From positions 1-64,000 of IMG/VR virus record IMGVR_UViG_3300031993_000033: a DNA stretch of 64,000 nt; one strand, written 5' to 3'. Below, piece by piece: positions 40,501 through 56,111 of this stretch (its first letter is position 1; every line of letters begins with the position of its first letter). A program made the translations under genes and the position numbers. Source of the stretch: a virus. Lineage: Duplodnaviria; Caudoviricetes. The notes beneath the pieces are model-generated. The model saw nothing but the letters and a program-made list of their open reading frames with translations, did no database searches and was not told the origin of the DNA.

Positions 40501-40553
40501 AAAGATACAGTAAAACAAAGTCAATCAAACAATAATTTTAAGGAGGCTTTTAT

Positions 40554-40730
40554 ATGAATAATACAAAGGTTTATTTCGATGGTCAGTTAGAGTGCGGAGC
40601 GTTTATAAAATCCGCATCCGTAACACTTCCAAACGATTATACAATGAATCAGCTTGTACAGGCAATAAAAAGCCGCGGATTCATTAATTTTAAGACTGAA
40701 TCAATGAAAATATTAGTTGATATCCGCTAA
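40554..40730 (+). CDS. Early hypothetical protein, 58 aa, not in ORF track
   Basis: AAGGAGG RBS, MNNTKVYFDG. Confidence 0.65.
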   Translation: MNNTKVYFDGQLECGAFIKSASVTLPNDYTMNQLVQAIKSRGFINFKTESMKILVDIR

Positions 40731-40824
40731 AAGATAACGGTTTTCTAAAGGGTTTTCCGCAAAAAAGCCCTATTCCACATAGGCAAAAAAACAAATCAAA
40801 TTAATATTTTAAGGAGGCATTATT

Positions 40825-41499
40825 ATGATGTACACTAATATTTTAAAGTCTTTACAGGCTGAAAACACAAACCGCATAAACAACGCTATAAAGGCTATAA
40901 ATGATAATAATATAGCTTTACAGCGTTACGCAACACAGGCAAGATGGAGCGCATACTTCAATCAGAATTTAAGCCGTGAAAAGTGTGTGGAATACACCAC
41001 AAACCGCATAAAAAAGGAAGCTGAAAAGAGCTTAAAAGCTGATATAGCAAGCCTTGAAAAGTACGAAAACGCACCTACAATTGAAGCTATTCAGATTAAT
41101 ATTGATTGGAAGCGTTCAAGTGTATGGGGATATAATCCACACGTTACACTCCGCATATGGTATGAAGGTATATTTGACATTGAAGAATATACAGCAAAAG
41201 CAAGCGGCTGTAATTACGACAAAAGATCACACGCTGTAGCAAGCGCACTGAATCAGTGTGCAGCTATAAAGGCTTTACTTTGTAACATGAAGGAAAAAGA
41301 AATTGAAAACGGCACGGAAATAAAAAAGACTGTAAGCGGGCTTGACATAAATCCGCATTCTTCAGGCTATGGAGCTATACCCTTTGTTGATGGTTGCGGA
41401 ATGTCAGCAATTGAAAATTTACTGGACAAATGCGGCTTTAAACTTACAAAAGAGCACGGCACAAAAACGACTGATTATTATTGGTTTGACCGCAAATAA
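40825..41499 (+). CDS. Early hypothetical protein
   Basis: AAGGAGG RBS, 224 aa. Confidence 0.7.
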   Translation: MMYTNILKSLQAENTNRINNAIKAINDNNIALQRYATQARWSAYFNQNLSREKCVEYTTNRIKKEAEKSLKADIASLEKYENAPTIEAIQINIDWKRSSVWGYNPHVTLRIWYEGIFDIEEYTAKASGCNYDKRSHAVASALNQCAAIKALLCNMKEKEIENGTEIKKTVSGLDINPHSSGYGAIPFVDGCGMSAIENLLDKCGFKLTKEHGTKTTDYYWFDRK

Positions 41500-41507
41500 A
41501 ATTCAAA

Positions 41508-41577
41508 TTTCAATGCAGAGTGACGCGGGATTTTTCCCGCGGTAATGCAGCCGGAGGCGGTCACAAGCCCGCTGAAT
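41508..41577 (+). ncRNA. Twister self-cleaving ribozyme, P5-type permutation
   Basis: UGCAGAGUGA, P1 hairpin CGCGGGA/UCCCGCG, UAAUGCAGCC, P4 GCGG-UCACAAGC-CCGC, T1 UCAC/GUGA, P5 UUCA/UGAA; predicted cut U41543/A41544. Confidence 0.85.
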
Positions 41578-41606
41578 CTGTAAATATATCTTTTGGAGGT
41601 CATACT

Positions 41607-42005
41607 ATGAAAAAGTGTAAAATCAGATTGACGGACAACAGCAAAAAGTTAATTTCTATGCTGGAAATTGATGATGTAAAAGCTATGATTCAGGAATTGC
41701 AGAATCAGGAGCTTGAAACAGATATTTTCAATCTCATTCCCGTTGCTATGGGATGTATTAAAAATTCAACATGGAGCTATTATGACGTAACAATGGAAAT
41801 ATGTAGAAATGCAAGAGTACCATATAATTACTACACGGAAAATAGTGCATACTATGATGTATGGGTAAATTTCAAGGCATTCAATGATTTTGACGGTTTT
41901 TATGTTGTTGGTATTTGCTTATCGGATATTTACAGCATATCAGAGGACAACAAACAGGAAATAAGACAGCATATGTATGTAAGAGAATACACGGAAAATA
42001 AATGA
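41607..42005 (+). CDS. Early hypothetical protein
   Basis: ATG after GGAGG; the longer ORF-track start overlaps the ribozyme. Confidence 0.7.
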   Translation: MKKCKIRLTDNSKKLISMLEIDDVKAMIQELQNQELETDIFNLIPVAMGCIKNSTWSYYDVTMEICRNARVPYNYYTENSAYYDVWVNFKAFNDFDGFYVVGICLSDIYSISEDNKQEIRQHMYVREYTENK

Positions 42006-42022
42006 AATGGAGGTTTAAAGCT

Positions 42023-42265
42023 ATGGCAAGACAGAAAATTACTATGGAAAAGCAAGTGAGAAATACGGTTATATATAACGATATTCTCAAGGCTATAGGT
42101 GGAAAAGCTAATGATACAATATCCATATACATTGACAGGAAATTTTACGCACATTATTCACGCTATTTAGGGAATGATGTATTTGACGATATTGCAGCAC
42201 ATAGCAACAAATCAGTTGATTTGATTGACGATCAGACAGGGGAAATTTTACGGCATAAAGCATAA
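42023..42265 (+). CDS. Early hypothetical protein
   Basis: GGAGG RBS. Confidence 0.65.
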   Translation: MARQKITMEKQVRNTVIYNDILKAIGGKANDTISIYIDRKFYAHYSRYLGNDVFDDIAAHSNKSVDLIDDQTGEILRHKA

Positions 42266-42373
42266 TAAAATCAAAGTTTTAACATTTAGGCGGCTATTTG
42301 AATACGGAAATTTGAATAGCTGTCTATGTGCTAAAACACATAAATCTATTGGAAATTTAAAGGAGGCTATACT

Positions 42374-42718
42374 ATGAAATATCATAAGATACCAAAAATT
42401 GAAAAGTCGGTATGTACCGCGGAGCAGAAAATTGCATATAACTATGCATCCACATATGCGGATAGATACCGCGATACATGGAAAAAGACAGCGGATCAGT
42501 ATTGTGAATTTCAGAAGTCAGAATTTATACATGAAGCTGTTGAATGGTGTATGAAGCTGATGCGGAATAATGCGGAAATTCAGCGGAAATATGACATTGA
42601 CGCTATATTTTGCGCGCTTAATGCTGGAATGCGGAATTACTTTGAAGCTAAATATAGTATACTGTCAAGCTATGAAGAAATAGGAAAAATGTTTCCTGCT
42701 AACTATTTAAATGTATAA
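42374..42718 (+). CDS. Early hypothetical protein
   Basis: AAGGAGG RBS. Confidence 0.7.
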   Translation: MKYHKIPKIEKSVCTAEQKIAYNYASTYADRYRDTWKKTADQYCEFQKSEFIHEAVEWCMKLMRNNAEIQRKYDIDAIFCALNAGMRNYFEAKYSILSSYEEIGKMFPANYLNV

Positions 42719-42731
42719 AGGAGGTTTAATT

Positions 42732-43019
42732 ATGAATAGACGTGAAATGTTAAACTGGATTAAATCAGAAATTTGTCCTAAACTTGACTTGAGTCAAGAG
42801 CTTGACATAAAATGTATACTTGACGTTGTGGGAAAATTCCGCATAAATCAGCACTACAAAACAGATACACCAATGACCGCAGCCGTTAATGAATATGGTC
42901 ATTTGTTTATCAATGGTATTCACGCCGGACAGATCACAAATAAAATACCTTTTGGAAATTTTGACGAGGAAGGTTATTTCTACGAAGGAAAAATATTAGC
43001 AAGATCAGAAGTCGAATAA
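42732..43019 (+). CDS. Early hypothetical protein
   Basis: AAGGAGG RBS. Confidence 0.65.
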   Translation: MNRREMLNWIKSEICPKLDLSQELDIKCILDVVGKFRINQHYKTDTPMTAAVNEYGHLFINGIHAGQITNKIPFGNFDEEGYFYEGKILARSEVE

Positions 43020-43109
43020 ACCTATATACTATGGGCTTGACGGAAATTCAAGCCTATAAATATAAGCTTATTTACCACATAAAACACATATTCTAAAGGA
43101 GGAAAAATT

Positions 43110-43562
43110 ATGAAAACAATGTCAATCTTTTTGGCAATAGCTTTAACGTCAAGTCCTATGCCAGCGGAAAATTATTATTCCTCTACTTCTCCTGAAGTAG
43201 CAACTGAGATTATAGAGCTTGTTATTAATGGAGAATATAGGGAATATTTAGACTTTAATGGTGACGGAAATTTAAACATTGCCGACGTTGTAGGCGTAAG
43301 CAAGCGTTATTCTGATAACTGTAAATACGGCAATGAGATAACATTAACAAGTGATACAGTGTACGATATTGCAACGGAAAATTATAGCGATGAGCTTATT
43401 TACTGGGAGATTGACCGCGTAAACGGAAATTTAACAAGACAGTACGAGCTTGTAGCAAGTGAGATTATGACAGCGGAAATTTACATGGAATTTGAAAACT
43501 ATTCAGAATGTATTACTGTTGAAGTCAATCCCTTTACGGAGACAATAACAGTAATTGATTAA
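43110..43562 (+). CDS. Putative exported protein with dockerin-like Ca-binding repeat
   Basis: Signal-like N-terminus; DFNGDGNLNIADVV motif. Confidence 0.55.
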   Translation: MKTMSIFLAIALTSSPMPAENYYSSTSPEVATEIIELVINGEYREYLDFNGDGNLNIADVVGVSKRYSDNCKYGNEITLTSDTVYDIATENYSDELIYWEIDRVNGNLTRQYELVASEIMTAEIYMEFENYSECITVEVNPFTETITVID

Positions 43563-43574
43563 GGAGGCGTGATT

Positions 43575-43715
43575 ATGTATTGCACATTTAATGGAAAAAT
43601 CTGCTTAATGATGTGGGATATACAAGCGGAAAAATACGTTTATATTCCTGAGTCAGTGTGGTATAGCTTTACAGAAAAAGCAAGATCACGCTATACAGAA
43701 GAACGCACAAATTAA
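43575..43715 (+). CDS. Early hypothetical protein, 46 aa, not in ORF track
   Basis: AAGGAGG RBS. Confidence 0.55.
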   Translation: MYCTFNGKICLMMWDIQAEKYVYIPESVWYSFTEKARSRYTEERTN

Positions 43716-43740
43716 ATGATTATAATATATCGGAAAGTTG

Positions 43741-43769
43741 TTGACAAAGTAACAAATGTGTGGTATACT
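43741..43769 (+). promoter_or_regulatory. Sigma-A promoter
   Basis: TTGACA-17bp-TATACT, TG extension. Confidence 0.75.
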
Positions 43770-43851
43770 ATAATCACAGGGAAAATCCCTGAATAGTTAT
43801 ACCCTAACAAGTAAACAAATGAAAAGTGTATTTTAACAGGAGGTCACGATT

Positions 43852-44337
43852 ATGAAAAGAACGTTTAATTTTGGAAAAATAGCCGCTTATGGTACAAGAA
43901 AAATCAATGCTGTTGATATTACCATTGAATTAACGGAAAAAGATGGTAAAAAGGTATTTTCAGCAAGCGGAAATGTATGGAATGCAAGGCATACAGATAT
44001 TATTAGAGGCGGTCAGTGTTTAGATTATATAGCAACAACAGCAAAAGGGCATAATCCTACATTTAAAAAAATATATAGACTTTGGAAAAATTACCACTTA
44101 AATGATATGCACGCAGGTACAAGAGAACAGGAAAATGCACTTAATGAGGCTGTAAAAGCTGGAAAAATTCAGAGCCGATCAGCAAATAACTATACCGAGT
44201 GTTGTGAATATCTAAAATCAATTGGATTATATGAAGTTGAGTTTAACGGAAAAATGTATAAATATGGTCATGGTTGGCTGTATTGGGAAATTCCTACAGA
44301 GGATATAGCAGCCATTGAAGCGTTAATAAAAGAGTGA
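43852..44337 (+). CDS. Early hypothetical protein
   Basis: AGGAGG RBS; W..YHLNDM.AGT..Q and YKYGHGW motifs. Confidence 0.7.
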   Translation: MKRTFNFGKIAAYGTRKINAVDITIELTEKDGKKVFSASGNVWNARHTDIIRGGQCLDYIATTAKGHNPTFKKIYRLWKNYHLNDMHAGTREQENALNEAVKAGKIQSRSANNYTECCEYLKSIGLYEVEFNGKMYKYGHGWLYWEIPTEDIAAIEALIKE

Positions 44338-44433
44338 TTCTATCATACGGAAAAAGCTTGACGGGTAGCTTACAATACCCGTCACCATAGACAATAAACC
44401 ATAAACCAACGGAAAATTAAGGAGGTCAAAACT

Positions 44434-44721
44434 ATGAATGAACAGGCTATTATTGACAAGGTAAACAAGATCGTTTCGGAAATTCGCAAAGAATATACCG
44501 AGTACAAAGGACAGTATTATTTACTTACTCATGTTATCAATCTTGAATTTCTTATGGGCAAATACTTTGCACTCATGGAAATTTTACTGAATAACATCGG
44601 AGAAAATCCGCTGAATCCTTTTGACAATGCGTATTGCACAGAGTACGAAAAGAATAAGGCTTTTATTGAAGCCGTTACAACACATATTGACGGTATGTAT
44701 AAGAAGCTGAAGGAGGTTTAA
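44434..44721 (+). CDS. Early hypothetical protein
   Basis: AAGGAGG RBS. Confidence 0.65.
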   Translation: MNEQAIIDKVNKIVSEIRKEYTEYKGQYYLLTHVINLEFLMGKYFALMEILLNNIGENPLNPFDNAYCTEYEKNKAFIEAVTTHIDGMYKKLKEV

Positions 44722-44723
44722 TT

Positions 44724-45044
44724 ATGGCAAATCAGATATTTGCAACACTTGACAAGTCGGAAAAATGGCTGGATAAACAGCGTGAAATTGACGGATATTC
44801 AGTTGACGGATTTACAGTTATTCCTTGCTTTAGAGGAAAATCAGTTGAGATCACATTCTTTAGGTTTGTAAAGCCTTTAGGATATGAGAACAAATGCAGC
44901 TATGAGATACCGACGGAAATTCGATCACAGTGCTATATGAAAATCATTAGCAAGTTAAAGAGATGCAGTTTTGTTGACGGAAAAGTTATCATATCAATAA
45001 GCGGTCAGAAATACTGCATAGGAACGTACACAACGGAAATTTAA
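44724..45044 (+). CDS. Early hypothetical protein
   Basis: AAGGAGG RBS. Confidence 0.65.
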   Translation: MANQIFATLDKSEKWLDKQREIDGYSVDGFTVIPCFRGKSVEITFFRFVKPLGYENKCSYEIPTEIRSQCYMKIISKLKRCSFVDGKVIISISGQKYCIGTYTTEI

Positions 45045-45057
45045 GGAGGAAGGAAAA

Positions 45058-45312
45058 ATGAAATACTATGAAATTGAATTTGCTCATAGAGCAGAAATTG
45101 AGGATGAGAGCTTTATCGGTACACCCGATAGATATAGTATCTGTATCTTAGCGGAAAGAGAGCCTTCATATGAAGAAGCGGAAATTTTCTGCAAAGAGGA
45201 TATGAACAATTTAGGTTATGACATGGTAAGTGATGTGTTGGAAATTAGCAAGGAAGAAGCCTACAATTTCTTTGATATGGAAAATGCAGACAACTTTCCG
45301 ATATTCAAGTAA
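45058..45312 (+). CDS. Early acidic hypothetical protein
   Basis: AAGGAGG RBS; strongly Asp/Glu-rich. Confidence 0.65.
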   Translation: MKYYEIEFAHRAEIEDESFIGTPDRYSICILAEREPSYEEAEIFCKEDMNNLGYDMVSDVLEISKEEAYNFFDMENADNFPIFK

Positions 45313-45413
45313 ATAAAATGACTGTTTAAACGTGAGCCGAAGCGGTCAGAAATGACCGTTTCCACATACGCTTAAACGGAAAATCAAAACAGCCGAAAGG
45401 CAAGGAGGTCAAT

Positions 45414-45758
45414 ATGTTAGTATTCAATTTCAATCATACGGAAAAGCAGCTTGAATTAGCTTGCAATGAGTTTTCGGAAATTCAGCTTGTAGCGGACAAT
45501 GAAGTATGCAAGGGCTGGGATATGCGACTCGGACACAGTGAGTTGAATATCACAAAGTATGGAGACTTCTACCGTGTAGGTGACTGCTACAATGGAAAAA
45601 TCCTGAGATCATTCAAGTGTAGTTTTGACGGAAATATGATAACAATTTATTCCGCTAATGACAACGGCAGAGAGCTTAAAGCGGAAAAATATTTAAAGAA
45701 ATATGCACAGTGTGCAATGAGAGTATTTGCTCTTGTACAGTGTGGAAAAATTAATTGA
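45414..45758 (+). CDS. Early hypothetical protein
   Basis: AAGGAGG RBS. Confidence 0.65.
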   Translation: MLVFNFNHTEKQLELACNEFSEIQLVADNEVCKGWDMRLGHSELNITKYGDFYRVGDCYNGKILRSFKCSFDGNMITIYSANDNGRELKAEKYLKKYAQCAMRVFALVQCGKIN

Positions 45759-45770
45759 GGAGGTTTAATC

Positions 45771-45983
45771 ATGTACGAATGCAATATCACTATAAAGCAG
45801 CCAACAGGGAAAGTCTCACAGAATAGAATAATGTCAAGGTTTGAGACAACACCTGAAATGATAGCGAGATCGGAAATGTGCTGGTATAGCACAGGAACAA
45901 TAATTGAAGTCAATGGAAAAGCCTTTAGGAAAATTCATGTTGATGATGCCGTTAAAGGCTATGCAGAGTTAGAGGAGGTTTAA
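45771..45983 (+). CDS. Early hypothetical protein
   Basis: AGGAGG RBS. Confidence 0.65.
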   Translation: MYECNITIKQPTGKVSQNRIMSRFETTPEMIARSEMCWYSTGTIIEVNGKAFRKIHVDDAVKGYAELEEV

Positions 45984-45985
45984 TT

Positions 45986-46360
45986 ATGGGATATGAGAGC
46001 AGAATAATTGTAGCAAAAAGGACTGTGTGGGAAGGATCAGGTCTTGTATGGTTTGAGAAGCTATCGGAAATGTGGTTAAGCAAAGTCGGTTATAACTTCC
46101 CTGAAATCTTCACTACGGAAATTGAATCCAATATCTATGGTGACGGTTTCAAGGAAAATTCAGAAGAAGAATATGAGCTGACCGAGGACAGATACGGAGA
46201 CATCTGCAAGTACACAGACATACAGACGGTCATTGACTGGCTGGAAAATGCAGAAGCAAAAAAGCATTACAGAAGGTTTACTCCTGCTATTGCAATGCTA
46301 AAGGCATATGCAGCGGAGAAATGGGAAGGCGATATAGTGGTGATCCACTATGGATATTAA
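45986..46360 (+). CDS. Early hypothetical protein
   Basis: AGGAGG RBS; MGYES...HYGY. Confidence 0.65.
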   Translation: MGYESRIIVAKRTVWEGSGLVWFEKLSEMWLSKVGYNFPEIFTTEIESNIYGDGFKENSEEEYELTEDRYGDICKYTDIQTVIDWLENAEAKKHYRRFTPAIAMLKAYAAEKWEGDIVVIHYGY

Positions 46361-46366
46361 GGAGGT

Positions 46367-46558
46367 TTGATTATGAACTTAGACGAAGCTATCAAATTAG
46401 TATTAAAAGGTAAAGCTATTAGAGCTAAAGAATGGGAAGAAGGTATGTACTTTAAGATTCGATGGCGTATGTTTGAGACTGAGGGCAGCGTAAGAAGTAA
46501 ACTTTGGAAATGGAAGGATTCAGAGTTTGAAGAAGTGCTGTTTGATTATACCGAATAA
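46367..46558 (+). CDS. DUF2829/Tad2-like small protein
   Basis: MNLDEAIKLVLKGKAIRAKEW resembles the DUF2829 N-terminus. Confidence 0.4.
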   Translation: MIMNLDEAIKLVLKGKAIRAKEWEEGMYFKIRWRMFETEGSVRSKLWKWKDSEFEEVLFDYTE

Positions 46559-46593
46559 AATAACACTTTCATTTAGCAGAGAGGAGTTTTAAT

Positions 46594-46908
46594 ATGCCTT
46601 ACAAATCGGAAAAACAAAAGCTTCCGCCTGAATTAGATCGCAGACGTAAGTTGAATGATGCACAGAAAGACGAGATAAAACATAAATACAGCACTGGACT
46701 TTACAGTCTTAACAGACTTGCTAAAGAGTATAATGTAAGTAAGAAAACAGTATTGCTTATTGTCAATCCTGAAAGCAAACGGAAAAATGATGAACGTATT
46801 AAAGAACATTGGCGTGATTATGTGCCTACAAAAGAAGAACATAATGCCATTATGAGAGAACACAGGGCATACAAACATAGAGTTTTAAAGGAGAAAAATT
46901 ATGTATAA
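46594..46908 (+). CDS. HTH DNA-binding protein
   Basis: KLNDAQKDEI...SLNRLAKEYNVSKKTV helix-turn-helix. Confidence 0.7.
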   Translation: MPYKSEKQKLPPELDRRRKLNDAQKDEIKHKYSTGLYSLNRLAKEYNVSKKTVLLIVNPESKRKNDERIKEHWRDYVPTKEEHNAIMREHRAYKHRVLKEKNYV

Positions 46909-47056
46909 AGCAACAATAACTTATATGACAGGCAGAATGAGAGGTATGACGGTATATCGTCTAACTTCTGATAAATTTGAACGTGGAATGATGTATAACG
47001 ATTCGCTTACAAACAATCGGTTTTATGTTGATTACGTTACAAAGATAGGAGAATGA
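46901..47056 (+). CDS. Hypothetical protein, 51 aa, not in ORF track
   Basis: AAGGAG RBS; fills the gap, coupled at both ends. Confidence 0.55.
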   Translation: MYKATITYMTGRMRGMTVYRLTSDKFERGMMYNDSLTNNRFYVDYVTKIGE

Positions 47057-47838: not shown

Positions 47839-47839
47839 T

Positions 47840-48542: not shown

Positions 48543-48552
48543 CAATTTATTC

Positions 48553-48581
48553 TTGACAATTGGAAATTTGCGTGACATAAT
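48553..48581 (+). promoter_or_regulatory. Sigma-A promoter for recombinase-ParB pair
   Basis: TTGACA-17bp-CATAAT, TG extension. Confidence 0.65.
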
Positions 48582-48596
48582 ATTAGCATAAGGAGG

Positions 48597-49601
48597 TTGA
48601 TGACCATGTTGGGAAATTTAAAAGAAACTTGTAGAGTAATTGACATCTCACAGAGACAACAGTCGGAAAATTCTTTTGACTTTGATTTTGACAGCCTTAT
48701 TCCAGACGTAGAACAACTCACTCCCGAAGAAGAACAGGCGATAGCCGAAGCCGAGTCAAAACTCAAAGAACGTCAGGGCTTTGACTGTATGCCGATTGGA
48801 ATATTGAATGAGCTTCTGAGATATTTTCTTGACAGGCGTGACTTTCGATCTGTATTCTGGATTGTCTTACAGGCAAATACTGGACTGAGATATTCCGATG
48901 TTATCAAATATCGGCGCATTGATTTGTTGAATGAGCATAATAAATTCAGAGAGTCCATTCTTGAACAAGAACGGAAAACTGGTAAGCAGAGAGTCAACTT
49001 TATAAATGATGCTATCAAAATAGCTACACTAATGCTCATATGGGAAAATCCCAGTATAAAGCCTTTAGACTTGATGATTAGCTCTGAATACAATGATAAG
49101 GCTCACAACAAAGGCTATGAAAAAGAAACTTATATCAACGCCAATGGCGAAGAACGTTGTTTGAGAGTGAACGGAAAATACGTTTATAAGCTCGATGAAA
49201 ACGGAAACAAAATTCCGAAGGCTCTTGGTCGCAGTCGCAGTTGTACTATAATGCGCGATGCTATGGTAGAAGGACTTGGTATATGCCTTAAAAATGATGG
49301 TCGCACTAAGAACAATGACGGAGCTTATTTGAAGCTGGCAAGTCATTCCATTAGAAAAGCATACTCCGCTGGTGTTGTAGAGCAGTTTGAAAAGATGTTT
49401 GACAGCAATGAGGCTTACGCACACGCAGCGGCAATGGAACAGTTGCAGTACGATCTTAACCATTCAAGCAGATCTATGACTTATCATTATATAGGCGATT
49501 ATGCCGAGACAAAACGCAAAACAAACATGAATATGAATCTTGGTTTGGAAATTTTGAAGCCATATTTTGAGGCGGAACGAAAAAGATATTTAGAGAGGTG
49601 A
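48597..49601 (+). CDS. Tyrosine recombinase (catalytic-domain type)
   Basis: NTGLRYSD, ERKTGK, SHSIRK, LNHSS..MTYHY. Confidence 0.88.
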   Translation: MMTMLGNLKETCRVIDISQRQQSENSFDFDFDSLIPDVEQLTPEEEQAIAEAESKLKERQGFDCMPIGILNELLRYFLDRRDFRSVFWIVLQANTGLRYSDVIKYRRIDLLNEHNKFRESILEQERKTGKQRVNFINDAIKIATLMLIWENPSIKPLDLMISSEYNDKAHNKGYEKETYINANGEERCLRVNGKYVYKLDENGNKIPKALGRSRSCTIMRDAMVEGLGICLKNDGRTKNNDGAYLKLASHSIRKAYSAGVVEQFEKMFDSNEAYAHAAAMEQLQYDLNHSSRSMTYHYIGDYAETKRKTNMNMNLGLEILKPYFEAERKRYLER

Positions 49602-49605
49602 GAAT

Positions 49606-50115
49606 ATGGGAACTACATCATATAAAAAGGCTCATATGAGCGAAGCGATAACAATTCCGGTATCGGAAATTCAGCTTACAGAAGCGGTGCATATTGCCGG
49701 AAATCCACACTACACCTGTGTTGGAAAATCCAGCGAGGACTGTTGCGTGATTGTACGCAGAAAGCGCGGCGGCTATGCGCTTGTGAGTGGCTGGGCTGAC
49801 TATCGGGAGTGTATTATGCAAGGCTATGGTGCTGTAAAGGCTATCGTGATGAATACGAAACGTGGAAATTTCATGAGGCAGTATGGCGACACATATCTGC
49901 CCCTATCGGAAATTTATGTGCCGGAGCATTTTGCGAAGTCTACTCCTCGTGATTGGAAAATCCAAAGAGTAAAACACAGACTCGGAGATAAGAAGAAACT
50001 GGATAAGCCGATAACTATTAATCAGGAACGCTATATCGTAGACGGTTACACACGGTATCTTGTTGCAAGGGAAATCGGTATGCGGTATGTGCCTGTAAGG
50101 CGGATAAATGATTAA
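49606..50115 (+). CDS. ParB/Srx-like domain protein
   Basis: KPITI..YIVDGYTRYLVA..G...VPV; degenerate second copy YALVSGWADY N-terminally. Confidence 0.7.
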   Translation: MGTTSYKKAHMSEAITIPVSEIQLTEAVHIAGNPHYTCVGKSSEDCCVIVRRKRGGYALVSGWADYRECIMQGYGAVKAIVMNTKRGNFMRQYGDTYLPLSEIYVPEHFAKSTPRDWKIQRVKHRLGDKKKLDKPITINQERYIVDGYTRYLVAREIGMRYVPVRRIND

Positions 50116-50140
50116 AAGATAAAAATATATCGGAAAAGTA

Positions 50141-50169
50141 TTGACAATTGCAATAGGAAGCAGTATAAT
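50141..50169 (+). promoter_or_regulatory. Sigma-A promoter for tRNA cluster
   Basis: TTGACA-17bp-TATAAT. Confidence 0.8.
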
Positions 50170-50211
50170 AGATAACAGAGGGGAACGGAAAATTCCCTCT
50201 GGAAGAAATAT

Positions 50212-50286
50212 TGGGGATTCGCCAAGTGGTGAAGGCACAGGACTTTGACTCCTGCATCGTGGTTTCGAGTACCACATCCCCAACCA
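50212..50286 (+). tRNA. tRNA-Gln(TTG)
   Basis: Cloverleaf, CAGGA-CUUUGAC-UCCUG anticodon arm, encoded CCA. Confidence 0.9.
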
Positions 50287-50351
50287 ACGGTTTCATTTCA
50301 TTTGTATGTCCTTTCAAGCCCTGTGGCGAGGCTCTAAACCGCCACAAATAT

Positions 50352-50451
50352 GGGAGCAAACCCGATTGATAAGCAGGCGCAATGCTGCTTTTGTTCCACA
50401 CTTCGCTTTTAATCATCGTAAGGGTGGTAGCCAGTCCACCCTCTCCCACCA
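50352..50451 (+). ncRNA. tRNA-like RNA with atypical interior
   Basis: GGGAG/CUCCC+ACCA, T-like arm GGGUGG/CCACCC, internal hairpin AAGCAG/CUGCUU. Confidence 0.4.
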
Positions 50452-50514
50452 AAATCTACGCTATACCTTGTGTATAGTTGACCTCCTAACGCCCGTCATC
50501 GTGGCGGGCAATAT

Positions 50515-50600
50515 GGACTTGTGGCGAAATTGGTAAACGCACTTGGTTCAAACCCAAGCGGTCTTAGACCTTGCAGATTCGAGTTCTGTCAAGTCCACCA
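50515..50600 (+). tRNA. tRNA-Leu(CAA)
   Basis: Cloverleaf with long variable arm, CUUGG-UUCAAAC-CCAAG, encoded CCA. Confidence 0.9.
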
Positions 50601-50602
50601 TA

Positions 50603-50688
50603 GGCAAGGGAGATAAAGTAGGTAAGTATCTATGGGTTTAAGCGTAGCACCTATGGAGATCGGTTCAAATCCGGTATCAACCTTGCCG
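50603..50688 (+). ncRNA. Aberrant tRNA-like RNA
   Basis: Acceptor GGCAAGG/CCUUGCC, D-arm, canonical GGUUCAAAUCC T-arm, 11-nt anticodon loop, 5-nt insert before 3' acceptor strand. Confidence 0.55.
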
Positions 50689-50695
50689 TTATAAT

Positions 50696-50788
50696 CAAGA
50701 TATTGTGTTTTAAAGGCTAAAAATGCGGATAAAGCACAATATCTTGTGTTTTACGGTCTGAAAATGTGTGTAAGATACAAGATATTGT
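50696..50788. repeat. Three copies of CAAGATATTGT (two direct, one inverted)
   Basis: 50696, 50736 (reverse), 50778. Confidence 0.7.
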
Positions 50789-50820
50789 ACGATAGAACTA
50801 ATATTCTATGAGGTGATGAT

Positions 50821-51201
50821 ATGGACGTAAAGATTACTGAACGTGGCTGGGCTGGGCATTTTTGTTGTAGTAAGTCTTGCTTGTTTAGACGTAATACATT
50901 GTTGGAGTATGGCGATAAAAAGTGGATTGTGTCTACTGTTGGCAATATGATTGACACACTTACTGGTAAATTAACAACCGTAGGATATGAAAGATGGTAC
51001 GAAACTATGGCGTTTGAAGCAACAGAAAGTGATGGATATATCGAAGCCGATGTTAGTAAGGATATATACTTTAATTCCGAGTGCGGACTATATGCTAAAA
51101 CAGCAAGAGAACTGCATGAAAAATATCCTTGTGTAGATAACGTTGCTAATGATATGCACGAGGCTGTTGTGTCTGAGTTAGCTGAAAAAATTAAGGAGTG
51201 A
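50821..51201 (+). CDS. Hypothetical phage protein
   Basis: TERGWAGHF..C.FRRNTL, YETMAF motifs. Confidence 0.7.
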   Translation: MDVKITERGWAGHFCCSKSCLFRRNTLLEYGDKKWIVSTVGNMIDTLTGKLTTVGYERWYETMAFEATESDGYIEADVSKDIYFNSECGLYAKTARELHEKYPCVDNVANDMHEAVVSELAEKIKE

Positions 51202-51635
51202 TAACAATGCGCTTGTGGAGTTACCAACTTTTGCCTTATCTGCCTCGACAGCAATTATTGTCTCAATGGAGAGAGTGCTGTTGCATAGCAAAGAGCATAG
51301 CAGAAAAGGGTACGCCTAATCACATACTGGTAAATAAGATTATGGATTATTCGATAGATCACTTTGTAGAGTATTGTTACAACGTCTGCATAGAGATGGA
51401 ATATAGAGGCTACAGATGTGACTTCTCACGGCTTGACCGATACCTTGAGACAATGAACAGTGTACCACTGAGAAATGGAGAACAGATATTCCCTGATTGG
51501 CATAATGACATTTATCTCAGAGAGTGTTTGTATAATTTGGAAGAAAAATTTAGAGCTAATGGTATTCCTGCTGACGAATGGCAGAGGATATACGATAGGT
51601 TTAAGGACTTTACACCGCTATGGGAGGGTAAATAA
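51198..51635 (+). CDS. Pyrimidine-dimer DNA glycosylase/endonuclease V-like protein
   Basis: MRLW..L.PYLPRQQLLSQWRE...EM..RGY...H...YL.EC..NL.EK. Confidence 0.75.
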   Translation: MITMRLWSYQLLPYLPRQQLLSQWRECCCIAKSIAEKGTPNHILVNKIMDYSIDHFVEYCYNVCIEMEYRGYRCDFSRLDRYLETMNSVPLRNGEQIFPDWHNDIYLRECLYNLEEKFRANGIPADEWQRIYDRFKDFTPLWEGK

Positions 51636-51904
51636 TGTATCAGCAAGTCAAGGAACTCCGAGCCTGTATAGATAAAATGTACGATGCTGCTATGAGGCAG
51701 GACGATGAGCGTAGAAAAGAGATTGAAACGCTCAAAGCCTATCTTAGTTTTGCGTTGAGTGCATTTGAAAGCATTAGGAGTTGTAAGTATGCTCCATGTG
51801 GATTTTGCAAGCATCGCAACGAAGATGACACTCCGTTTTGTGGTGAAGGTCATAAATGGGAATGGGAATACGCAGAAGAAGTCAAGAAGTTATTGGCTGA
51901 ATAA
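51635..51904 (+). CDS. Hypothetical protein
   Basis: Coupled ORF, GGAGG RBS. Confidence 0.6.
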   Translation: MYQQVKELRACIDKMYDAAMRQDDERRKEIETLKAYLSFALSAFESIRSCKYAPCGFCKHRNEDDTPFCGEGHKWEWEYAEEVKKLLAE

Positions 51905-51917
51905 AAGGAGTGATAAT

Positions 51918-52139
51918 ATGATTGACGGATTTACGATGTATTATAACAGTGGTGAACGGTGTGAAAACAGCAAGACGAAGTACGAAGAACTATGTGAGCA
52001 AATGAGAATTTTACAAAATAACTTAGATTCCGAAGATGCACATGGCAAAGCAGATGATATTCTGTGTGAAGCTCTTAAAATGTTTGGCTGTAATGAACTT
52101 GTTGAGCTTTATGAACAAATTGAAAAATGGTATTCATGA
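51918..52139 (+). CDS. Hypothetical protein
   Basis: AAGGAG RBS; D.E.AH..ADD.LC...KWYS. Confidence 0.6.
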   Translation: MIDGFTMYYNSGERCENSKTKYEELCEQMRILQNNLDSEDAHGKADDILCEALKMFGCNELVELYEQIEKWYS

Positions 52140-52156
52140 TAAAAGGAGGATTTAAA

Positions 52157-52342
52157 ATGGGTTATGAGCATGAAGAAAAATATATCGAAAAAGTAAAAGA
52201 AATACAGAGTATGCAAGATGCTGAAAAGTATAGATTATATATGCAATGGTGTAATGAATGTCCGAAAGCTCATGACTTTACCTGTTCAGGAGCAGATGCT
52301 AAAAAATGTGAACAAGAAAAGCAAAAGTTACTGGCTAAATGA
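52157..52342 (+). CDS. Hypothetical protein
   Basis: AAGGAGG RBS. Confidence 0.6.
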   Translation: MGYEHEEKYIEKVKEIQSMQDAEKYRLYMQWCNECPKAHDFTCSGADAKKCEQEKQKLLAK

Positions 52343-52357
52343 AAGGGGAGTTTTATT

Positions 52358-52738
52358 ATGAGTGACTACTGCCACAAAAAAGTCATAAGAATGAAAATAT
52401 CAGAAGAAGAAGCCTGTGAGATATTTGGTGTTGATGACGGTTGGGGTATATCAGACTTGCTTGAGAAAACAGAGTTTGAAATCGCTCCTACATCCGATTT
52501 CTTTATTGACTATGTTCTATTTTCCAGAAATGATGCTGAAGGTGATTGGGGCAGAACAAGACGGTTAGGCAATGCTGAGTATTTAAAGTATGGTAGCAAG
52601 TTTAGAAAACTTCTTAAACGCAGAATCGTTATGCCTAATGAACTAAGACTTGTCGAATACTGTTGGTATGATTGCAGCGAAGCCCCAGATTATTTTGACG
52701 AGCCGACTGATCACGATGACTTTTACGATGAGGTGTAA
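52358..52738 (+). CDS. Hypothetical protein
   Basis: GGGGAG RBS. Confidence 0.65.
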   Translation: MSDYCHKKVIRMKISEEEACEIFGVDDGWGISDLLEKTEFEIAPTSDFFIDYVLFSRNDAEGDWGRTRRLGNAEYLKYGSKFRKLLKRRIVMPNELRLVEYCWYDCSEAPDYFDEPTDHDDFYDEV

Positions 52739-52741
52739 ACT

Positions 52742-53029
52742 ATGAAACGAGTTTGTCCTTATGATGAGATCACGCCTATGAGTCTTACGGGTTGTCACCA
52801 GTGTGGTTTTAGACTGATTTGCTCGGAATACGAAAAGGCTCTTAGATATATGTACAGTTATATTCGTATGGGCAACTCAGCAAGGATATGTGGTAAACGG
52901 ATAATGGCAGAAGATTTGAGAGACATTTATAGAAATAAGTTAGAAATGATTAGTAATAGCTTTTGGCGATGGACTTCTAATGAAGAATTGCTGAAAGATA
53001 TTGCCGTACATGAGGTGAGATATTTATGA
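52742..53029 (+). CDS. Hypothetical protein
   Basis: GAGGTG RBS. Confidence 0.55.
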   Translation: MKRVCPYDEITPMSLTGCHQCGFRLICSEYEKALRYMYSYIRMGNSARICGKRIMAEDLRDIYRNKLEMISNSFWRWTSNEELLKDIAVHEVRYL

Positions 53030-53460
53030 GAGTAAATGTTAAAAACTATATGTATAGATGGTTTGATGATATGTTGATTTTGCAGACCGAGGATGACAAC
53101 GTTCTCTATATTTATTGCCCAAGTGAGTGCATATATAATGATGGGATTTCACGTTATTATTGTTACAAAGAAAATCTTCAAGCAAGAGAGTTGTTGGAAA
53201 TTGATTATGTAGATTATCATACGGAATCAGACTCAGATATTTCTTGTGACGGAATTGCTCACTTTATTCAGTATAGGAATAATAAGAAAATCATTATGCG
53301 TGGATATAGATGTTGTAAACATAGAAAACTTCCAGATGATATTCTTAATAAAGCTGGTGGATATTGGTATCACCGAAATGATAATGAAACAGTTGAAAAT
53401 GATAAAAAGAAGCGTCAGTGGTCAGATTTTATATCTGTTATAAGTGATGCAATAAAATGA
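53026..53460 (+). CDS. Hypothetical protein
   Basis: ATGA overlap. Confidence 0.6.
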   Translation: MRVNVKNYMYRWFDDMLILQTEDDNVLYIYCPSECIYNDGISRYYCYKENLQARELLEIDYVDYHTESDSDISCDGIAHFIQYRNNKKIIMRGYRCCKHRKLPDDILNKAGGYWYHRNDNETVENDKKKRQWSDFISVISDAIK

Positions 53461-53488
53461 AAGTCTTGTTTTATTAAGGAGGTTTATT

Positions 53489-54091
53489 GTGGATTACGAC
53501 ACGATTTACAATGGCACAACAATAGATGGTGTTAAAGCCATTACAGATGCTTTAGAACTATCAGCATATGAACATAAAAAATTAGAAAGGCATCAGAAAC
53601 TAAGTCAGCTTGCAGATGAAGATGTAGCTTATACAATCAGAAAGAACGTCAATTATTTATGGGTTGATTATTACTTTGATGATGCAAAAGAATGGCTTGA
53701 TATAAGAACTCAAAAATACGATAAGCGTAAAAAGTATAAGGAAAAAGATGCGTATGAATACCTTGTAAATGAAATCAAAGAAATTTTTCAAGTTGATACT
53801 TGCGAGATAATTAGAATGTGCTATGAAGGATATGAACAGTATTCCAGATGGATAGAATTTACAACCGATAGTGATTATATATTTCATATGACTATCCCAG
53901 TTGTGAAAAGAATCACGCCTAAACTTATGTCTTATGTTTATTATGGCAAGGTTACAATTGGATATTATGTAGGCGAAAATTATAGAAGAATATGTGGGGC
54001 TTCTTATAATACAACAGAATTAAAACCAATTATGGATGAAATTCTAACATCTGAAGAATACAAAAAGCATTTGTCAAAGATGAAAGAATAA
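53489..54091 (+). CDS. Hypothetical protein
   Basis: AAGGAGG RBS, GTG start. Confidence 0.65.
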   Translation: MDYDTIYNGTTIDGVKAITDALELSAYEHKKLERHQKLSQLADEDVAYTIRKNVNYLWVDYYFDDAKEWLDIRTQKYDKRKKYKEKDAYEYLVNEIKEIFQVDTCEIIRMCYEGYEQYSRWIEFTTDSDYIFHMTIPVVKRITPKLMSYVYYGKVTIGYYVGENYRRICGASYNTTELKPIMDEILTSEEYKKHLSKMKE

Positions 54092-54170
54092 TTTTATCGG
54101 TAAAATAACGACGTAGAATAGCCAAAAAGTGGCTCTAAAAATTACATGAAATTTCACTTTTATGAGGAGG

Positions 54171-54578
54171 ATGAAGATGAGTGAACTCACATTGGACGAA
54201 GCCATAAAGCATTGCCTTGAAGTGGCGGAGCAGAATGAAATAGATTCAATAACGTACAAGAACTGCAAAGAAATCAAGACCAATATGTATGAAAAGCTAC
54301 TCGCAGAAAAAGTGGAGAATGACTGCTTAGAGTGTGCCGCAGACCATAGACAGCTTGCAGAGTGGCTTAATGAGCTTAAAGAAGCAAGAAAGCTATTGAC
54401 CGCCACAAAGTACAGGGTGAAGCATGAAGAATGGGATATGCACGGAGAGCATTACATAGGCGATTATGCGTTATGTCCTAACTGCAATAAATGTTTTACA
54501 AATATCTATAACGGCAAAGCAGCTCCAGTTGTTACATTCTGCCCTGACTGCGGTCAGAAGATAGACTGGAATGAATAA
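54171..54578 (+). CDS. Hypothetical protein with C-terminal zinc ribbon
   Basis: TLDEAIKHC..HRQLAEWL; CPNC..FCPDCG. Confidence 0.65.
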   Translation: MKMSELTLDEAIKHCLEVAEQNEIDSITYKNCKEIKTNMYEKLLAEKVENDCLECAADHRQLAEWLNELKEARKLLTATKYRVKHEEWDMHGEHYIGDYALCPNCNKCFTNIYNGKAAPVVTFCPDCGQKIDWNE

Positions 54579-54621
54579 AACGTGTCTTAGACGGCAAAGA
54601 CGAATTTGAAACAAAGGAGAA

Positions 54622-54888
54622 ATGAAAATGGCTGAAAGTTGGAATGATATATTTGGTGGACAATTTGCCAAACCAGATGTTAAACATGATAAACTAATTG
54701 CAAAAGCAGTTGAGTGTTACACCGAAAAGCTTGAAGAAGAAAATAAGGTGTTGAAAGATATTATAAGGCAGATAGATGATGCTTTTATGTCCTTTAACGG
54801 TAAGAGCAAGTCTACTGATGATATAATTAATGAGATTATTGATATTCTGAAAGTTTATAGAGATGCGTTTAGGGAGGAAGCACCATGA
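54622..54888 (+). CDS. Hypothetical protein
   Basis: AAGGAG RBS. Confidence 0.6.
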   Translation: MKMAESWNDIFGGQFAKPDVKHDKLIAKAVECYTEKLEEENKVLKDIIRQIDDAFMSFNGKSKSTDDIINEIIDILKVYRDAFREEAP

Positions 54889-55259
54889 AAGAGTACTTAG
54901 AGCTTGAAAGGGTGCTTGATGATAGTCATATCATCACAGTACAAACAAGGGACTATGGCAGTTTAGAGGTTGTGCCTGTTGAATACCTTGCAAATTTACC
55001 AACCGTAGAACTACAAACCATAAAAGATGTAGTTGTACCAAAACTTGAAAAACATAACATAAAACGTGGTTATCCTGATATGACCGAGGGAGAAGTAGCT
55101 GCTTATATATTAGGATTCAACGAGCATGAGAAGCTTAATATGGGGCATTGCTATATTGATAATGAGGGGTACGAAAGATGTTCTGTATGTAATGAGCATG
55201 AAACAGGTATGAGATATGCCTCATTCTGCCCGAGATGCGGCGTCAAGCTGAAACACTGA
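54885..55259 (+). CDS. Hypothetical protein with zinc ribbon
   Basis: CSVC..FCPRCG. Confidence 0.6.
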   Translation: MKEYLELERVLDDSHIITVQTRDYGSLEVVPVEYLANLPTVELQTIKDVVVPKLEKHNIKRGYPDMTEGEVAAYILGFNEHEKLNMGHCYIDNEGYERCSVCNEHETGMRYASFCPRCGVKLKH

Positions 55260-55276
55260 AACAAGGAGAACTAACA

Positions 55277-55597
55277 ATGACGCTTGAACAAACTATAAAC
55301 GATTGTGAAAGACTTGCAGATCAGCAAGAAGCAATAATTAAAAATATTAAAAATAATTTGGCGGGTACTCCAATTAAAGAGTATATAGATGAGTGTTCTG
55401 AGTGTTCTGCTTATTCTAGGCAGATTGCAGAATGGCTTACGGAACTTAAAGAGTGGAAGGCAAATCCGTTTAGCCTGATTAAAACAGAGTGCAAAAATAA
55501 TTACTACTGTAATAAGTGTGCTTTTCTCGACCATTGTCCATTTTCAAACGGGAACAGAGTTGCGGCAGAACACCCGATGGACTGGGTTGTATATTAA
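55277..55597 (+). CDS. Hypothetical protein (paralog of 54171 N-terminus)
   Basis: TLEQTINDC..RQIAEWLTELKE. Confidence 0.6.
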   Translation: MTLEQTINDCERLADQQEAIIKNIKNNLAGTPIKEYIDECSECSAYSRQIAEWLTELKEWKANPFSLIKTECKNNYYCNKCAFLDHCPFSNGNRVAAEHPMDWVVY

Positions 55598-55626
55598 AGT
55601 TGCATTTTATTGGAGGTGAACAATGA

Positions 55627-55860
55627 ATGACCAATGATAAACTTGATAAGGCTATTGCTACAAGAAAGAAAATGTCAGAGTACGATGATATAATTAAAAT
55701 GCTCAATGACAATCAGTACGACCATTTTAACATACATGGAGTGTGTAGCGATGGTGTGAGCGACTACATAGACCTTTTGCCTGATGATTGTTTAAAGGCT
55801 GTAAAACAATGGTATATAGACGAGTGGATAAAGTTAAAGGAAGAATTTGAAAAGATATGA
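55627..55860 (+). CDS. Hypothetical protein
   Basis: GGAGGTGA RBS. Confidence 0.6.
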   Translation: MTNDKLDKAIATRKKMSEYDDIIKMLNDNQYDHFNIHGVCSDGVSDYIDLLPDDCLKAVKQWYIDEWIKLKEEFEKI

Positions 55861-55886
55861 AAGCTACATTTTATCGGAGGTGAACC

Positions 55887-56084
55887 ATGAGAGACATAAA
55901 CAGACTTGATAAGTTCTACGACGAGCTTAAAGAGATACATAAGAAGAACTTTCCTGATTGGCGTTTCGGTCAGATGATAGTCAATGTGTTGGCTGATTGG
56001 CAAGCTAAGACCAAGAGAGATATTTTCTTTCCCGAAGAAGATGAGATGATACAGATATTCAGGGATTATGTAAACAAAACTTGA
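55887..56084 (+). CDS. Hypothetical phage protein
   Basis: MRDINR...PDWRFGQ..D.FF.E.D. Confidence 0.65.
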   Translation: MRDINRLDKFYDELKEIHKKNFPDWRFGQMIVNVLADWQAKTKRDIFFPEEDEMIQIFRDYVNKT

Positions 56085-56111
56085 AACCTACGTTTTATTG
56101 GAGGTGAACAC

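Follow-up and report, generated by a model that had tools for sequence, protein, structure and literature searches.

Why does the same short palindrome recur at one gene junction after another in a phage genome, and what keeps it there while the adjacent genes change? The question is raised by IMG/VR record IMGVR_UViG_3300031993_000033, of which positions 1 to 64,000 were analyzed here (the window). This 64-kb window forms the opening part of a 104,704-bp virus record (about 105 kb) with a terminal repeat of 127 bp, and the best metagenome matches to its DNA come from the bovine gut (rumen). The palindrome, searched as the 16 bp pattern TNRAA-N6-TTYNA, consists of two inverted arms around a six-base centre. 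A preliminary description, made from the letters of the window, had proposed that the copies are recombination sites of an integron-like system that inserts and excises single-gene cassettes. The sites are present, they are spread through a phage family, their centres are conserved and collinear between relatives, and they are preferred boundaries of genomic mosaicism. On this basis, we put the chances at about even (a probability of roughly 0.5) that the palindromes are core-type recombination sites, with their centres serving as addresses for in-register exchange between related phages.

The sites proposed in the preliminary description, 19 on the right arm and two on the left arm, are all present at their positions. 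The pattern was counted against 100 dinucleotide shuffles of the window, and it occurs 31 times as compared with 16.88 ± 4.52 in the shuffles (maximum 28). With the spacer varied from N2 through N11, the window contains 11, 12, 11, 13, 31, 15, 12, 8, 12, and 18 matches, and the 40–57 kb region contains 4, 2, 1, 3, 23, 10, 4, 4, 2, and 6. The N7 matches in 40–57 kb are mostly N6 sites with a trailing A, and thus shadows of the same sites; over the window, the N7 spacing is not enriched (15 versus 17.5 ± 4.4 in shuffles). A spacer fixed at 6 bp had been described, with the comparison to N5 and N7 proposed as a check, and neither of these versions is enriched. The stricter form TRAAA-N6-TTTTA occurs 12 times, against an expectation of 1.8 ± 1.9. 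In the whole genome, 59 matches are found at N6 and 16–32 at other spacings. The series extends past the window through 65–78 kb, while the left arm of the window shows no overall enrichment (8 matches in 40 kb).

The 23 pattern matches in 40–57 kb comprise 19 at gene junctions and four intragenic ones (43853, 43947, 49387, and 53775), which are chance hits. The left arm of the palindrome had been described as a frequent source of the stop codon, with the ribosome-binding site (RBS) next to the palindrome or in its spacer, and this arrangement is observed. The upstream stop codon coincides with bases 1–3 of the site at 41497, 42003, 46556, 52340, 53458, 55858, and 56082, and the RBS lies 0–3 nt past the palindrome or within the spacer (42003, 52140, and 52340). 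Fourteen of the 19 junctions with a gap of 15–45 nt bear the palindrome, compared with none of the 42 compact junctions (gap of at most 13 nt). In effect, the palindrome constitutes the intergenic spacer. The sites occupy transcribed leaders, 3' of sigma-A-type promoters. A promoter function of the palindrome itself was rejected, as the sigma-A-type promoters lie upstream and a start 6–7 nt past the right arm would fall inside the RBS.

The palindrome is not confined to this phage. The open reading frame (ORF) at 29932–32679 on the minus strand (915 aa) shares 36% identity, across 97–99% of its length, with YonO, the single-chain RNA polymerase of Bacillus phage SPbeta (PMC5467207). The minus-strand arm, with its polymerase, helicase, HNH endonucleases, and tyrosine recombinase, is arranged as in SPbeta, and so is the divergent plus-strand arm, which begins at about 40 kb and carries numerous small genes. 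Because of the YonO-type polymerase and the SPbeta-matching layout, the phage is classed as SPbeta-like, with a low-GC host that uses Shine–Dalgarno sequences. SPbeta itself contains 34 perfect copies of TAAAA-N6-TTTTA, as opposed to 0–3 at other spacings. Nearly all are intergenic or start on a stop codon, and copies of this kind are found at yoqG, yoqS, yoqY, yorT, mtbP, yorZ, yosC, yosF, and yosR. The dyad in SPbeta reaches positions −5 (T in 73% of copies) and +22 (A in 94%), giving an 11-6-11 site; these outer arm positions are informative in SPbeta and carry no information in the window phage or in the related genome G006. G006 (126 kb) has 22 perfect copies versus 0–1 at other spacings, with sites on both coding arms, and the palindrome is also enriched in the relatives G002 (26 kb) and G004 (106 kb). 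All five genomes keep the spacing strictly at 6 bp.

When every 5-mer inverted repeat at spacings of 2–12 was scanned without bias, TAAAA/N6 came out as one of the two families enriched in the window phage genome; it was the sole enriched family in G004 and G006 and the strongest of four in SPbeta. Three further relatives (G001, G007, and G008) show no enrichment of the palindrome, and the same kind of scan applied to G001 and G008 revealed no alternative palindrome family. G001 has YonO and many other genes in common with the window phage. The palindrome is a family-wide, DNA-level element that is ancient in the SPbeta-like lineage. Our literature search retrieved no paper describing a TAAAA-N6-TTTTA junction palindrome.

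The centres of the palindromes proved to be more informative than the arms. By megablast, 40–57 kb has no match in the phage collection, and only about 12 kb of G004 aligns to the window phage; most of the G002 proteins encoded in this arm have no BLASTP match in the window phage. Exact-spacer partners in the window phage were found for 17 of 21 G002 sites and 23 of 33 G004 sites, in strictly collinear order, and the unmatched sites are mostly intragenic chance hits. Fewer than one spacer match is expected by chance (about 40 × 33 site pairs, 4096 possible spacers). The preliminary description had noted that the spacer differs from site to site; each site has its own six-base centre, which is conserved across relatives. 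In 53 orthologous pairs, 60 mismatches were counted, all at positions 2, 3, 14, and 15 (22, 10, 8, and 20, respectively), with the spacer and the six fixed positions in the arms free of any (Fisher p = 2e-13). Since the pairs were picked via the spacer, this count is biased, yet nearly every junction site had a partner. One rank-matched pair outside the set of 53, genome position 75402 versus G004 489, has centres differing by one base, so rank-matched centres are nearly, not strictly, invariant. The window phage shares no address with G006 or SPbeta beyond one match explicable by chance, and the addresses are accordingly lineage-specific.

The flanks of the same sites behave differently. Within 24 nt, both flanks are unrelated in 35 of the 53 pairs, one is unrelated in 17, and neither in a single pair. 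Where an alignment reaches the edge of a site, or already within an arm, its identity drops to a random level. Pooled over both sides, identical arms were counted in 16 of 19 cases with a homologous adjacent flank and in 42 of 87 without one (p = 0.005). That arm variants tend to go with the adjacent flank suggests that exchange lies inside the site.

Reading the sites as places of addressed crossover is favoured because the centre, which looks variable when the copies of one genome are compared, is the most conserved part of each copy. Such conservation would reflect the demand for partner matching in strand exchange, unlike the footprint of a regulator that reads the arms. The shape agrees with a tyrosine-recombinase core, for which two inverted arms around a 6–8 bp centre are expected; the arrangement is 5-6-5 in all motif-bearing genomes. 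In the proposed mechanism, a recombinase dimer of the simple tyrosine type would bind the two inverted 5-bp arms (11 bp in SPbeta), and strands would be exchanged across the 6-bp centre. Identical centres would be required, so each site would pair only with the copy bearing the same address, and it is for this reason that the centres could act as addresses. The partner would be the equally ranked site of a relative that is co-infecting or resident. Crossovers would then stay in register and fall on gene boundaries, whether or not the flanking genes are homologous, and repeated crossovers would exchange the genes lying between two addresses. Both the cutting of the sites by a recombinase and the choice of the enzyme are what we infer from these patterns.

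The conserved centres also bear on the idea that the palindrome acts in mRNA, as a small AU hairpin near or around the RBS that serves as the target of a translational regulator or of nuclease cleavage. The proximity to the RBS, with the Shine–Dalgarno (SD) sequence in the loop at 42003, 52140, and 52340, is what such an element would show, and the excess of G at position 2 in the window phage (17 versus 4) could reflect a G-U pair; this asymmetry is missing in G002 and G006. A stable RNA hairpin was rejected, the predicted hairpins being marginal at 0 to −2.2 kcal/mol. At several sites (41497, 42266, 44327, and 45314) the next start is about 100 nt away, each site keeps its own loop although loops differ from site to site, and the G006 sites appear on both coding arms as a palindrome. 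An mRNA element is therefore very unlikely.

The main rival is a dimeric phage or host protein that binds the palindrome and acts on expression, as a roadblock, insulator, or punctuation mark set between units of transcription or translation; we consider this explanation unlikely, though the strongest of the alternatives. The half-site centres of the dyad are about 11 bp apart, as with helix-turn-helix (HTH) dimers, and a small HTH protein encoded at 46594–46908 is 88% conserved in G002 and G004, but it is equally conserved in the motif-free G007 and G008. The copies lie in transcribed DNA 3' of strong sigma-A-type promoters and beside RBSs, many of them overlap stop codons like stoperators, and they occur only where the gap is at least 15 nt; their placement relative to the promoters is not constant. 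A protein reading only the arms would leave the invariant centres, together with the varying positions 2, 3, 14, and 15, unexplained. Recombination at the sites would follow indirectly on this account, with conserved sites surviving as islands and stalled polymerases or forks at bound sites raising recombination. The master repressor of SPbeta uses a different motif, the SPbeta repressor element SPBRE (PMC10516654). The alternative offered in the preliminary description, operators of a phage regulator, is thus improbable for the master repressor and survives as a site for some other DNA-binding protein.

If the palindromes are addressed crossover sites, differences in gene content between relatives should begin and end at them. 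To define breakpoints, nine SPbeta-group phages were compared over SPbeta 82.7–100.3 kb and its counterparts. Ten addresses are collinear in the nine phages, and the distances between them vary several-fold; the slot from GATGCA to GTAAAA, for example, measures 278, 812, 2254, or 3613 bp, and neighbouring slot types are found in all four combinations. In the yorZ–yosK block, SPbeta and a related phage (phi3T or a Goe phage) have four addresses in common, one of them with a one-base difference, and the genes lying between these addresses are mostly unrelated. Among 513 ends of homology blocks, 21% fall within −3 to +18 of a site, compared with 1.4% for random positions. The ends accumulate just outside both site edges, as expected because a shared site belongs to both blocks. 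Junctions with a site average 2.3 breakpoints, and 94% of them have one or more, versus 0.58 for site-less junctions (36%); site-less junctions with gaps of at least 15 nt carry 0.82 each. The window phage gives 0.97 breakpoints per site junction versus 0.25 at site-less junctions (p = 0.0017) and 0.28 at long site-less gaps (p = 0.048). The sites are accordingly preferred, not exclusive, mosaic boundaries and are breakpoints 3–4 times more often than site-less junctions. The coincidence of breakpoints between relatives with the sites, which the preliminary description had named as its test, is therefore observed, with some breakpoints at site-less junctions as well.

Contigs from four rumen runs show population variants in which whole genes are skipped or replaced, with joints at palindromes. 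The joints lie at 40527 (twice), at 42265 (two joints ending there, just before site 42266), at 43093 (beginning within site 43080), from 43836 to 44325 (following site 43820), at 52337 and 52356 (around site 52340), at 53457 (three joints ending just before site 53458), and at 56098 (beginning just past site 56082). One contig retains the address of 52340 but connects it to 54111.

Comparison with the relatives shows that slots between addresses can be filled, refilled, or empty. G002 retains the orthologous counterparts of both 44327 and 45314 at a distance of only 18 nt, so the three genes at 44434–45312 fill a slot that can be empty. The G002 slot after site 53458 contains a TnpB gene in place of the gene at 53489–54091. 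The G002 site at the rank of 54147 bears the address of 55594, and 54147–55593 is thus absent from G002. In G004, the address of site 43820 is duplicated in direct order, 1.4 kb apart, around a four-gene insert, which is the arrangement that would be expected from insertion or unequal exchange at this address. The TnpB proteins (OrfB_IS605 plus a Cas12f-like TNB domain) are encoded at genome positions 76635–77840, beyond the window, and at G002 23581–24783; they are 82% identical between the two phages and stand in different slots of the junction array.

The behaviour of these slots speaks against the integron analogy, in which single-gene cassettes, each with its own site, would leave as circles and integrate at a primary site. 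An array of small promoterless genes in one direction, recombinase genes close by, and the G004 insert bounded twice by the same address would all suit such a system. A site, however, keeps its spacer and its rank while the genes on both sides are replaced, instead of travelling with a cassette, and empty slots retain both sites. The exchanged units often comprise several genes rather than the single genes that had been envisaged, and the sites measure 16 bp, not the 57–141 nt of a folded attC. Neither recombinase gene is next to a primary site heading the array, and no attI-like site and no integrase of the integron type were seen. The genes move whereas the sites remain where they are; for this reason the system is not an integron, and the integron-like reading is hardly tenable. 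What stands of the preliminary recombination-site proposal is the 5-6-5 core shape and the coincidence of the sites with differences in gene content.

Two recombinase genes in the window are candidates for the enzyme of the proposed addressed exchange. The first, at 22663–23841 on the minus strand, encodes an Xer-like tyrosine recombinase with a SAM-like N-terminal domain and a catalytic domain in which R, K, HxLRH, W, and Y are all present; it is a homolog of SPbeta YomM (E = 1e-25). The second, a tyrosine-recombinase-like gene at 48597–49601 on the plus strand, represents a second lineage inside the motif-rich arm and is a candidate enzyme or regulator. Its R, K, HxxR, H, and Y are invariant in five homologs, and it has no Pfam match and no sequence match among PDB chains, including none that would support a likeness to the SPbeta repressor MrpR. 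PF00589 recombinases are present in all compared genomes, motif-bearing or not. A host Xer-type enzyme is an equally possible actor on the sites. Phylogenetic profiling for a site binder was tried and rejected, the lone protein tracking the motif being a C5 DNA methyltransferase fragment.

Several observations weigh against addressed exchange by a recombinase, and the distribution of these genes is the first. The lineage of 48597–49601 has a 42–44% identical homolog in the motif-free G001, and YomM-like genes are found in the window phage, G004, and SPbeta and not clearly in the motif-rich G006. The presence or absence of either lineage thus fails to track the palindrome across genomes, and the preliminary suggestion that one of the two recombinases drives the system is not supported. 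The conserved arms are just 5–6 bp in the rumen lineage, which is short for a tyrosine recombinase, an enzyme type that recognizes arms of about 9–13 bp. The association of arm identity with the adjacent flank gives p = 0.053 on the left and 0.13 on the right when each side is taken separately, and the pairs are non-independent. Contig joints also occur at repeated ribosome-binding words of compact junctions (e.g. 44427 to 44719), and the 36% of site-less SPbeta-group junctions with a breakpoint point in the same direction. Selection for intact genes alone drives visible breakpoints toward gene edges and inflates any association with gene borders. The close link to stop codons and RBSs could indicate a role in expression. 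Finally, in laboratory hybrids of phi3Ts and SPbeta, 15 of 16 joints lie in homologous regions, with no palindrome noted (bioRxiv 10.1101/2020.05.06.055103). In the hybrid Hyb2, the SPbeta block came in via homologous flanks, and the sole non-homologous joint ('after yosA') was sought and could not be located.

The hybrids lead to the possibility that no dedicated enzyme is involved and that the palindromes, as islands of 16–28 bp kept for another reason, supply short homology for phage annealing or general recombination. Those hybrids arose mainly by homologous recombination (bioRxiv 10.1101/2020.05.06.055103), SPbeta is annotated with a Sak4-like annealing protein (YorG), and the joints at repeated RBS words of compact junctions suggest that short-homology exchange is active. 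The strict 5-6-5 palindrome common to all sites and the kept centres are left unexplained by short homology, which also leaves the primary function of the site open. Moreover, efficient homologous exchange usually takes a longer stretch than 16 bp. We therefore regard this account as improbable.

Addressed exchange has partial precedents among known systems. The pdif/dif modules of Acinetobacter plasmids, recombined by XerC/XerD, resemble the palindromes in having short inverted-arm sites with a 6-bp centre that flank variable accessory modules, with a simple tyrosine recombinase presumed to act without accessory arm sites. The pdif arms are 11 bp long and match chromosomal dif, their orientation alternates around modules, and they carry no individual addresses. 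The sites described here differ in sequence and in the length of conservation (5–6 bp, and 11 in SPbeta), and they number dozens in a phage genome, each with its own centre, in a fixed order across relatives. The SPbeta consensus agrees at about 6 of 11 positions of one arm with the Bacillus subtilis dif sequence, which is no more than a lead.

Heterospecific lox and FRT sites, as used in recombinase-mediated cassette exchange, offer the closest functional parallel: arms are identical, spacers differ, and only sites with the same spacer recombine, which results in an in-register swap of the segment between them. Those systems are engineered, use an established enzyme, and need no more than two or three variants of the site, unlike the palindromes, which are natural, comprise 30–45 variants per genome, and have only candidate enzymes. 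The integron pair attC/attI shares with the array a unidirectional series of small, mostly promoterless genes between palindromic sites and a suspected tyrosine recombinase. attC is long, is recombined as a folded single strand, and moves with its cassette, unlike the 16-bp palindromes, which are fixed in place and outlast their neighbours (both flanks changed in 35 of 53 pairs). The promoter early stem-loops (PeSLs) of T4-type phages and the 'boundary' or 'linker' sequences of lambdoid phages are likewise short conserved elements bordering variable genes, for which modular shuffling was proposed. They are promoters, terminators, or 20–100 bp homologies for general recombination and, unlike the palindromes, have no common palindromic core and no address per site.

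Regulatory repeats provide the other comparisons. The stoperators of cluster A mycobacteriophages (bound by L5 gp71) number 20–35 short sites in small intergenic gaps, distributed across transcribed DNA and often on stop codons, as the palindromes are (PMC9283540, PMC6550527). They are asymmetric 13-bp elements of one sequence, dependent on orientation, and bound by a monomeric repressor (PMC9283540, PMC6550527). The palindrome, in contrast, has a perfectly symmetric consensus and a centre that is free yet site-specific, and the G bias at position 2 is seen in the window phage only. In SPbeta, the repressor MrpR (YopR), which has a tyrosine-recombinase fold, gave 10 ChAP-seq peaks, all in promoter regions containing SPBRE (PMC10516654). 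SPBRE is similar to the palindrome as a dispersed repeat in the same phage family whose binder has a recombinase fold. The SPBRE box, read here as ATACA-N7-TGTAT within a 15–22 bp box, lies upstream of yonT, yonX, aimR, yopM, yopV, yorE, and yonP. Its sequence and spacing differ from those of TAAAA-N6-TTTTA, and its roughly 10 copies lie in promoter regions. An identity of the palindrome with the SPBRE operator was rejected because the sequences differ and SPbeta carries both. A possible SPBRE analog in the window phage genome, ATTAC-N7-GTAAT (nine copies), was also discarded as a 45-bp coding tandem repeat. Its nine units at genome positions 67927–68303, beyond the window, are mostly 45 bp apart within a 378-aa gene (67554–68690) and encode a 15-residue repeat.

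Taken beyond this phage, the comparison raises the possibility, which we advance tentatively and as somewhat less than an even chance, that SPbeta-like phages of Bacillus, Clostridia, and their relatives practise a natural form of recombinase-mediated cassette exchange, in which the six-base centres of 30–45 heterospecific sites per genome form a shared coordinate system, used by a phage or host tyrosine recombinase for in-register crossing of related genomes at gene boundaries. If so, accessory genes, including anti-defence genes, could be reassorted without flanking homology, which would explain the fast turnover of accessory and counter-defence genes in the SPbeta-like family, and the sites would constitute ready-made orthogonal recombination sites. 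If the palindromes are regulatory instead, they would represent a new kind of dispersed punctuation element. It has long been asked how phage mosaicism comes to coincide exactly with gene borders; conserved linkers were reportedly proposed decades ago and have rarely been found. As a Bacillus subtilis model phage and uncultured rumen phages share the element, the idea is directly testable.

The individual sites, which on the right arm are all given on the plus strand, illustrate how the palindrome is fitted into junctions. The site at 40525–40540 (address CAATAA) lies in the 5' untranslated region, 18 nt past the strong sigma-A-type promoter at 40472–40500, with the SD sequence following immediately (0 nt); its address recurs in G002 (9317) and, in reverse complement, in G004 (70024), with unrelated left flanks. 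The site at 40796–40811 (address TTAATA) stands immediately 5' of the SD sequence of the gene 40825–41499, and the same 16-mer precedes unrelated genes in G002 and G004. At 41497–41512, the first TAA is the stop codon of 40825–41499 and a GC hairpin follows; the right flank is common with G004 for 92 nt and the left flanks are unrelated. At 42003–42018, TGA is the stop codon of the upstream gene and the SD sequence lies within the spacer. The site at 42266–42281 is immediately 3' of the stop codon of 42023–42265, and its right flank is common with G002 only. The site at 43080–43095 is 5' of the SD sequence of 43110–43562, and that at 43820–43835 (address AGTGTA) is about 50 nt downstream of the promoter at 43741–43769.

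Farther along, the site at 44327–44342 overlaps the end of the gene 43852–44337, and that at 45314–45329 lies just 3' of the stop codon of 45058–45312; compared with G004, the latter shows identity from the left flank through the spacer, with divergence beginning within the right arm. At 46556–46571, TAA is the stop codon of 46373–46558. The three left flanks at this site are all unrelated, and G002 and G004 share a right flank from which that of the window differs. The site at 50793–50808, located after a tRNA cluster and ahead of 50821–51201, has the variant arms TAGAA/TTCTA. Its counterpart at G002 21184 reads TAAAA...TTTTA, a symmetric double change that keeps the dyad and that is a single unexplained case.

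The sites at 52140–52155 and 52340–52355 both have the SD sequence within the spacer, and TGA at the latter is the stop codon of 52157–52342. At 53458–53473, TGA is the stop codon of 53026–53460. The site at 54081–54096 overlaps the end of the gene 53489–54091, and the next one, at 54147–54162, begins 66 nt beyond it, 5' of the SD sequence of 54177–54578. At the stop codon of that gene lies the site at 54576–54591, which had been called degenerate and indeed has the right arm TTAGA, outside the search pattern. At 55594–55609, the stop codon occupies bases 2–4, and both flanks are unrelated in G002 and G004. TGA is the stop codon of 55627–55860 at 55858–55873 and of 55887–56084 at 56082–56097.

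On the left arm, the site at 22650–22665 lies on the minus strand and, read in that direction, opens with the TAG that terminates the Xer-like recombinase gene; it is identical in the close relative G003, whose overall similarity makes the comparison uninformative. The left-arm match at 26489–26504 (strand not assigned) is of uncertain status. The gene whose 3' end it occupies is not a recombinase gene. This gene (26489–27595, minus strand) encodes a beta-CASP/RMMBL metallo-nuclease with 83% identity in the motif-free relative G001.

Several palindromes in three phages adjoin a second recurrent element, which reads ACGTAGAATAG(C/G) ahead of a short GC hairpin and a run of A and also occurs as the reverse complement. 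It is found at 54111–54140 in the window, at genome positions of about 66.4, 70.8, and 74.4 kb, and at junctions of G002 and G004. Two metagenome contig joints fall at 54111, at this element. Near-consensus sigma-A-type promoters are located at 40348, 40472, 43741, 48553, and 50141. The word CGGAAA stands 4–5 nt 5' of the −35 hexamer at strong early promoters and also occurs in other intergenic gaps; its occurrences in the window are at 40330–40350, 43730–43745, 44345–44362, and 50128–50145, and it may be an UP-like or activator element. The consensus promoter at 50141–50169 precedes genes for tRNA-Gln (ttg; 50212–50286) and tRNA-Leu (caa; 50515–50600), both on the plus strand, and the 50.2–50.79 kb region may contain an additional structured RNA. 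Among the small early genes, 51207–51635 on the plus strand encodes a pyrimidine-dimer DNA glycosylase (Pyr_excise).

Beyond the window, relatives of SPbeta mtbP lie at genome positions 70884–73981, namely several genes, or gene fragments, for C5 DNA methyltransferases; among them, the 134-aa ORF at 73577–73981 resembles a detached C-terminal part of such an enzyme. On the minus-strand arm, HNH or homing-endonuclease genes are located at 19104–20456 and 32676–33641, and one of them is the immediate neighbour of the RNA polymerase gene; an inserted gene splits yonO itself in several relatives of SPbeta. Homologs of the YonO-type polymerase are also present in phage records of Enterocloster, Thomasclavelia, and Clostridium botulinum.

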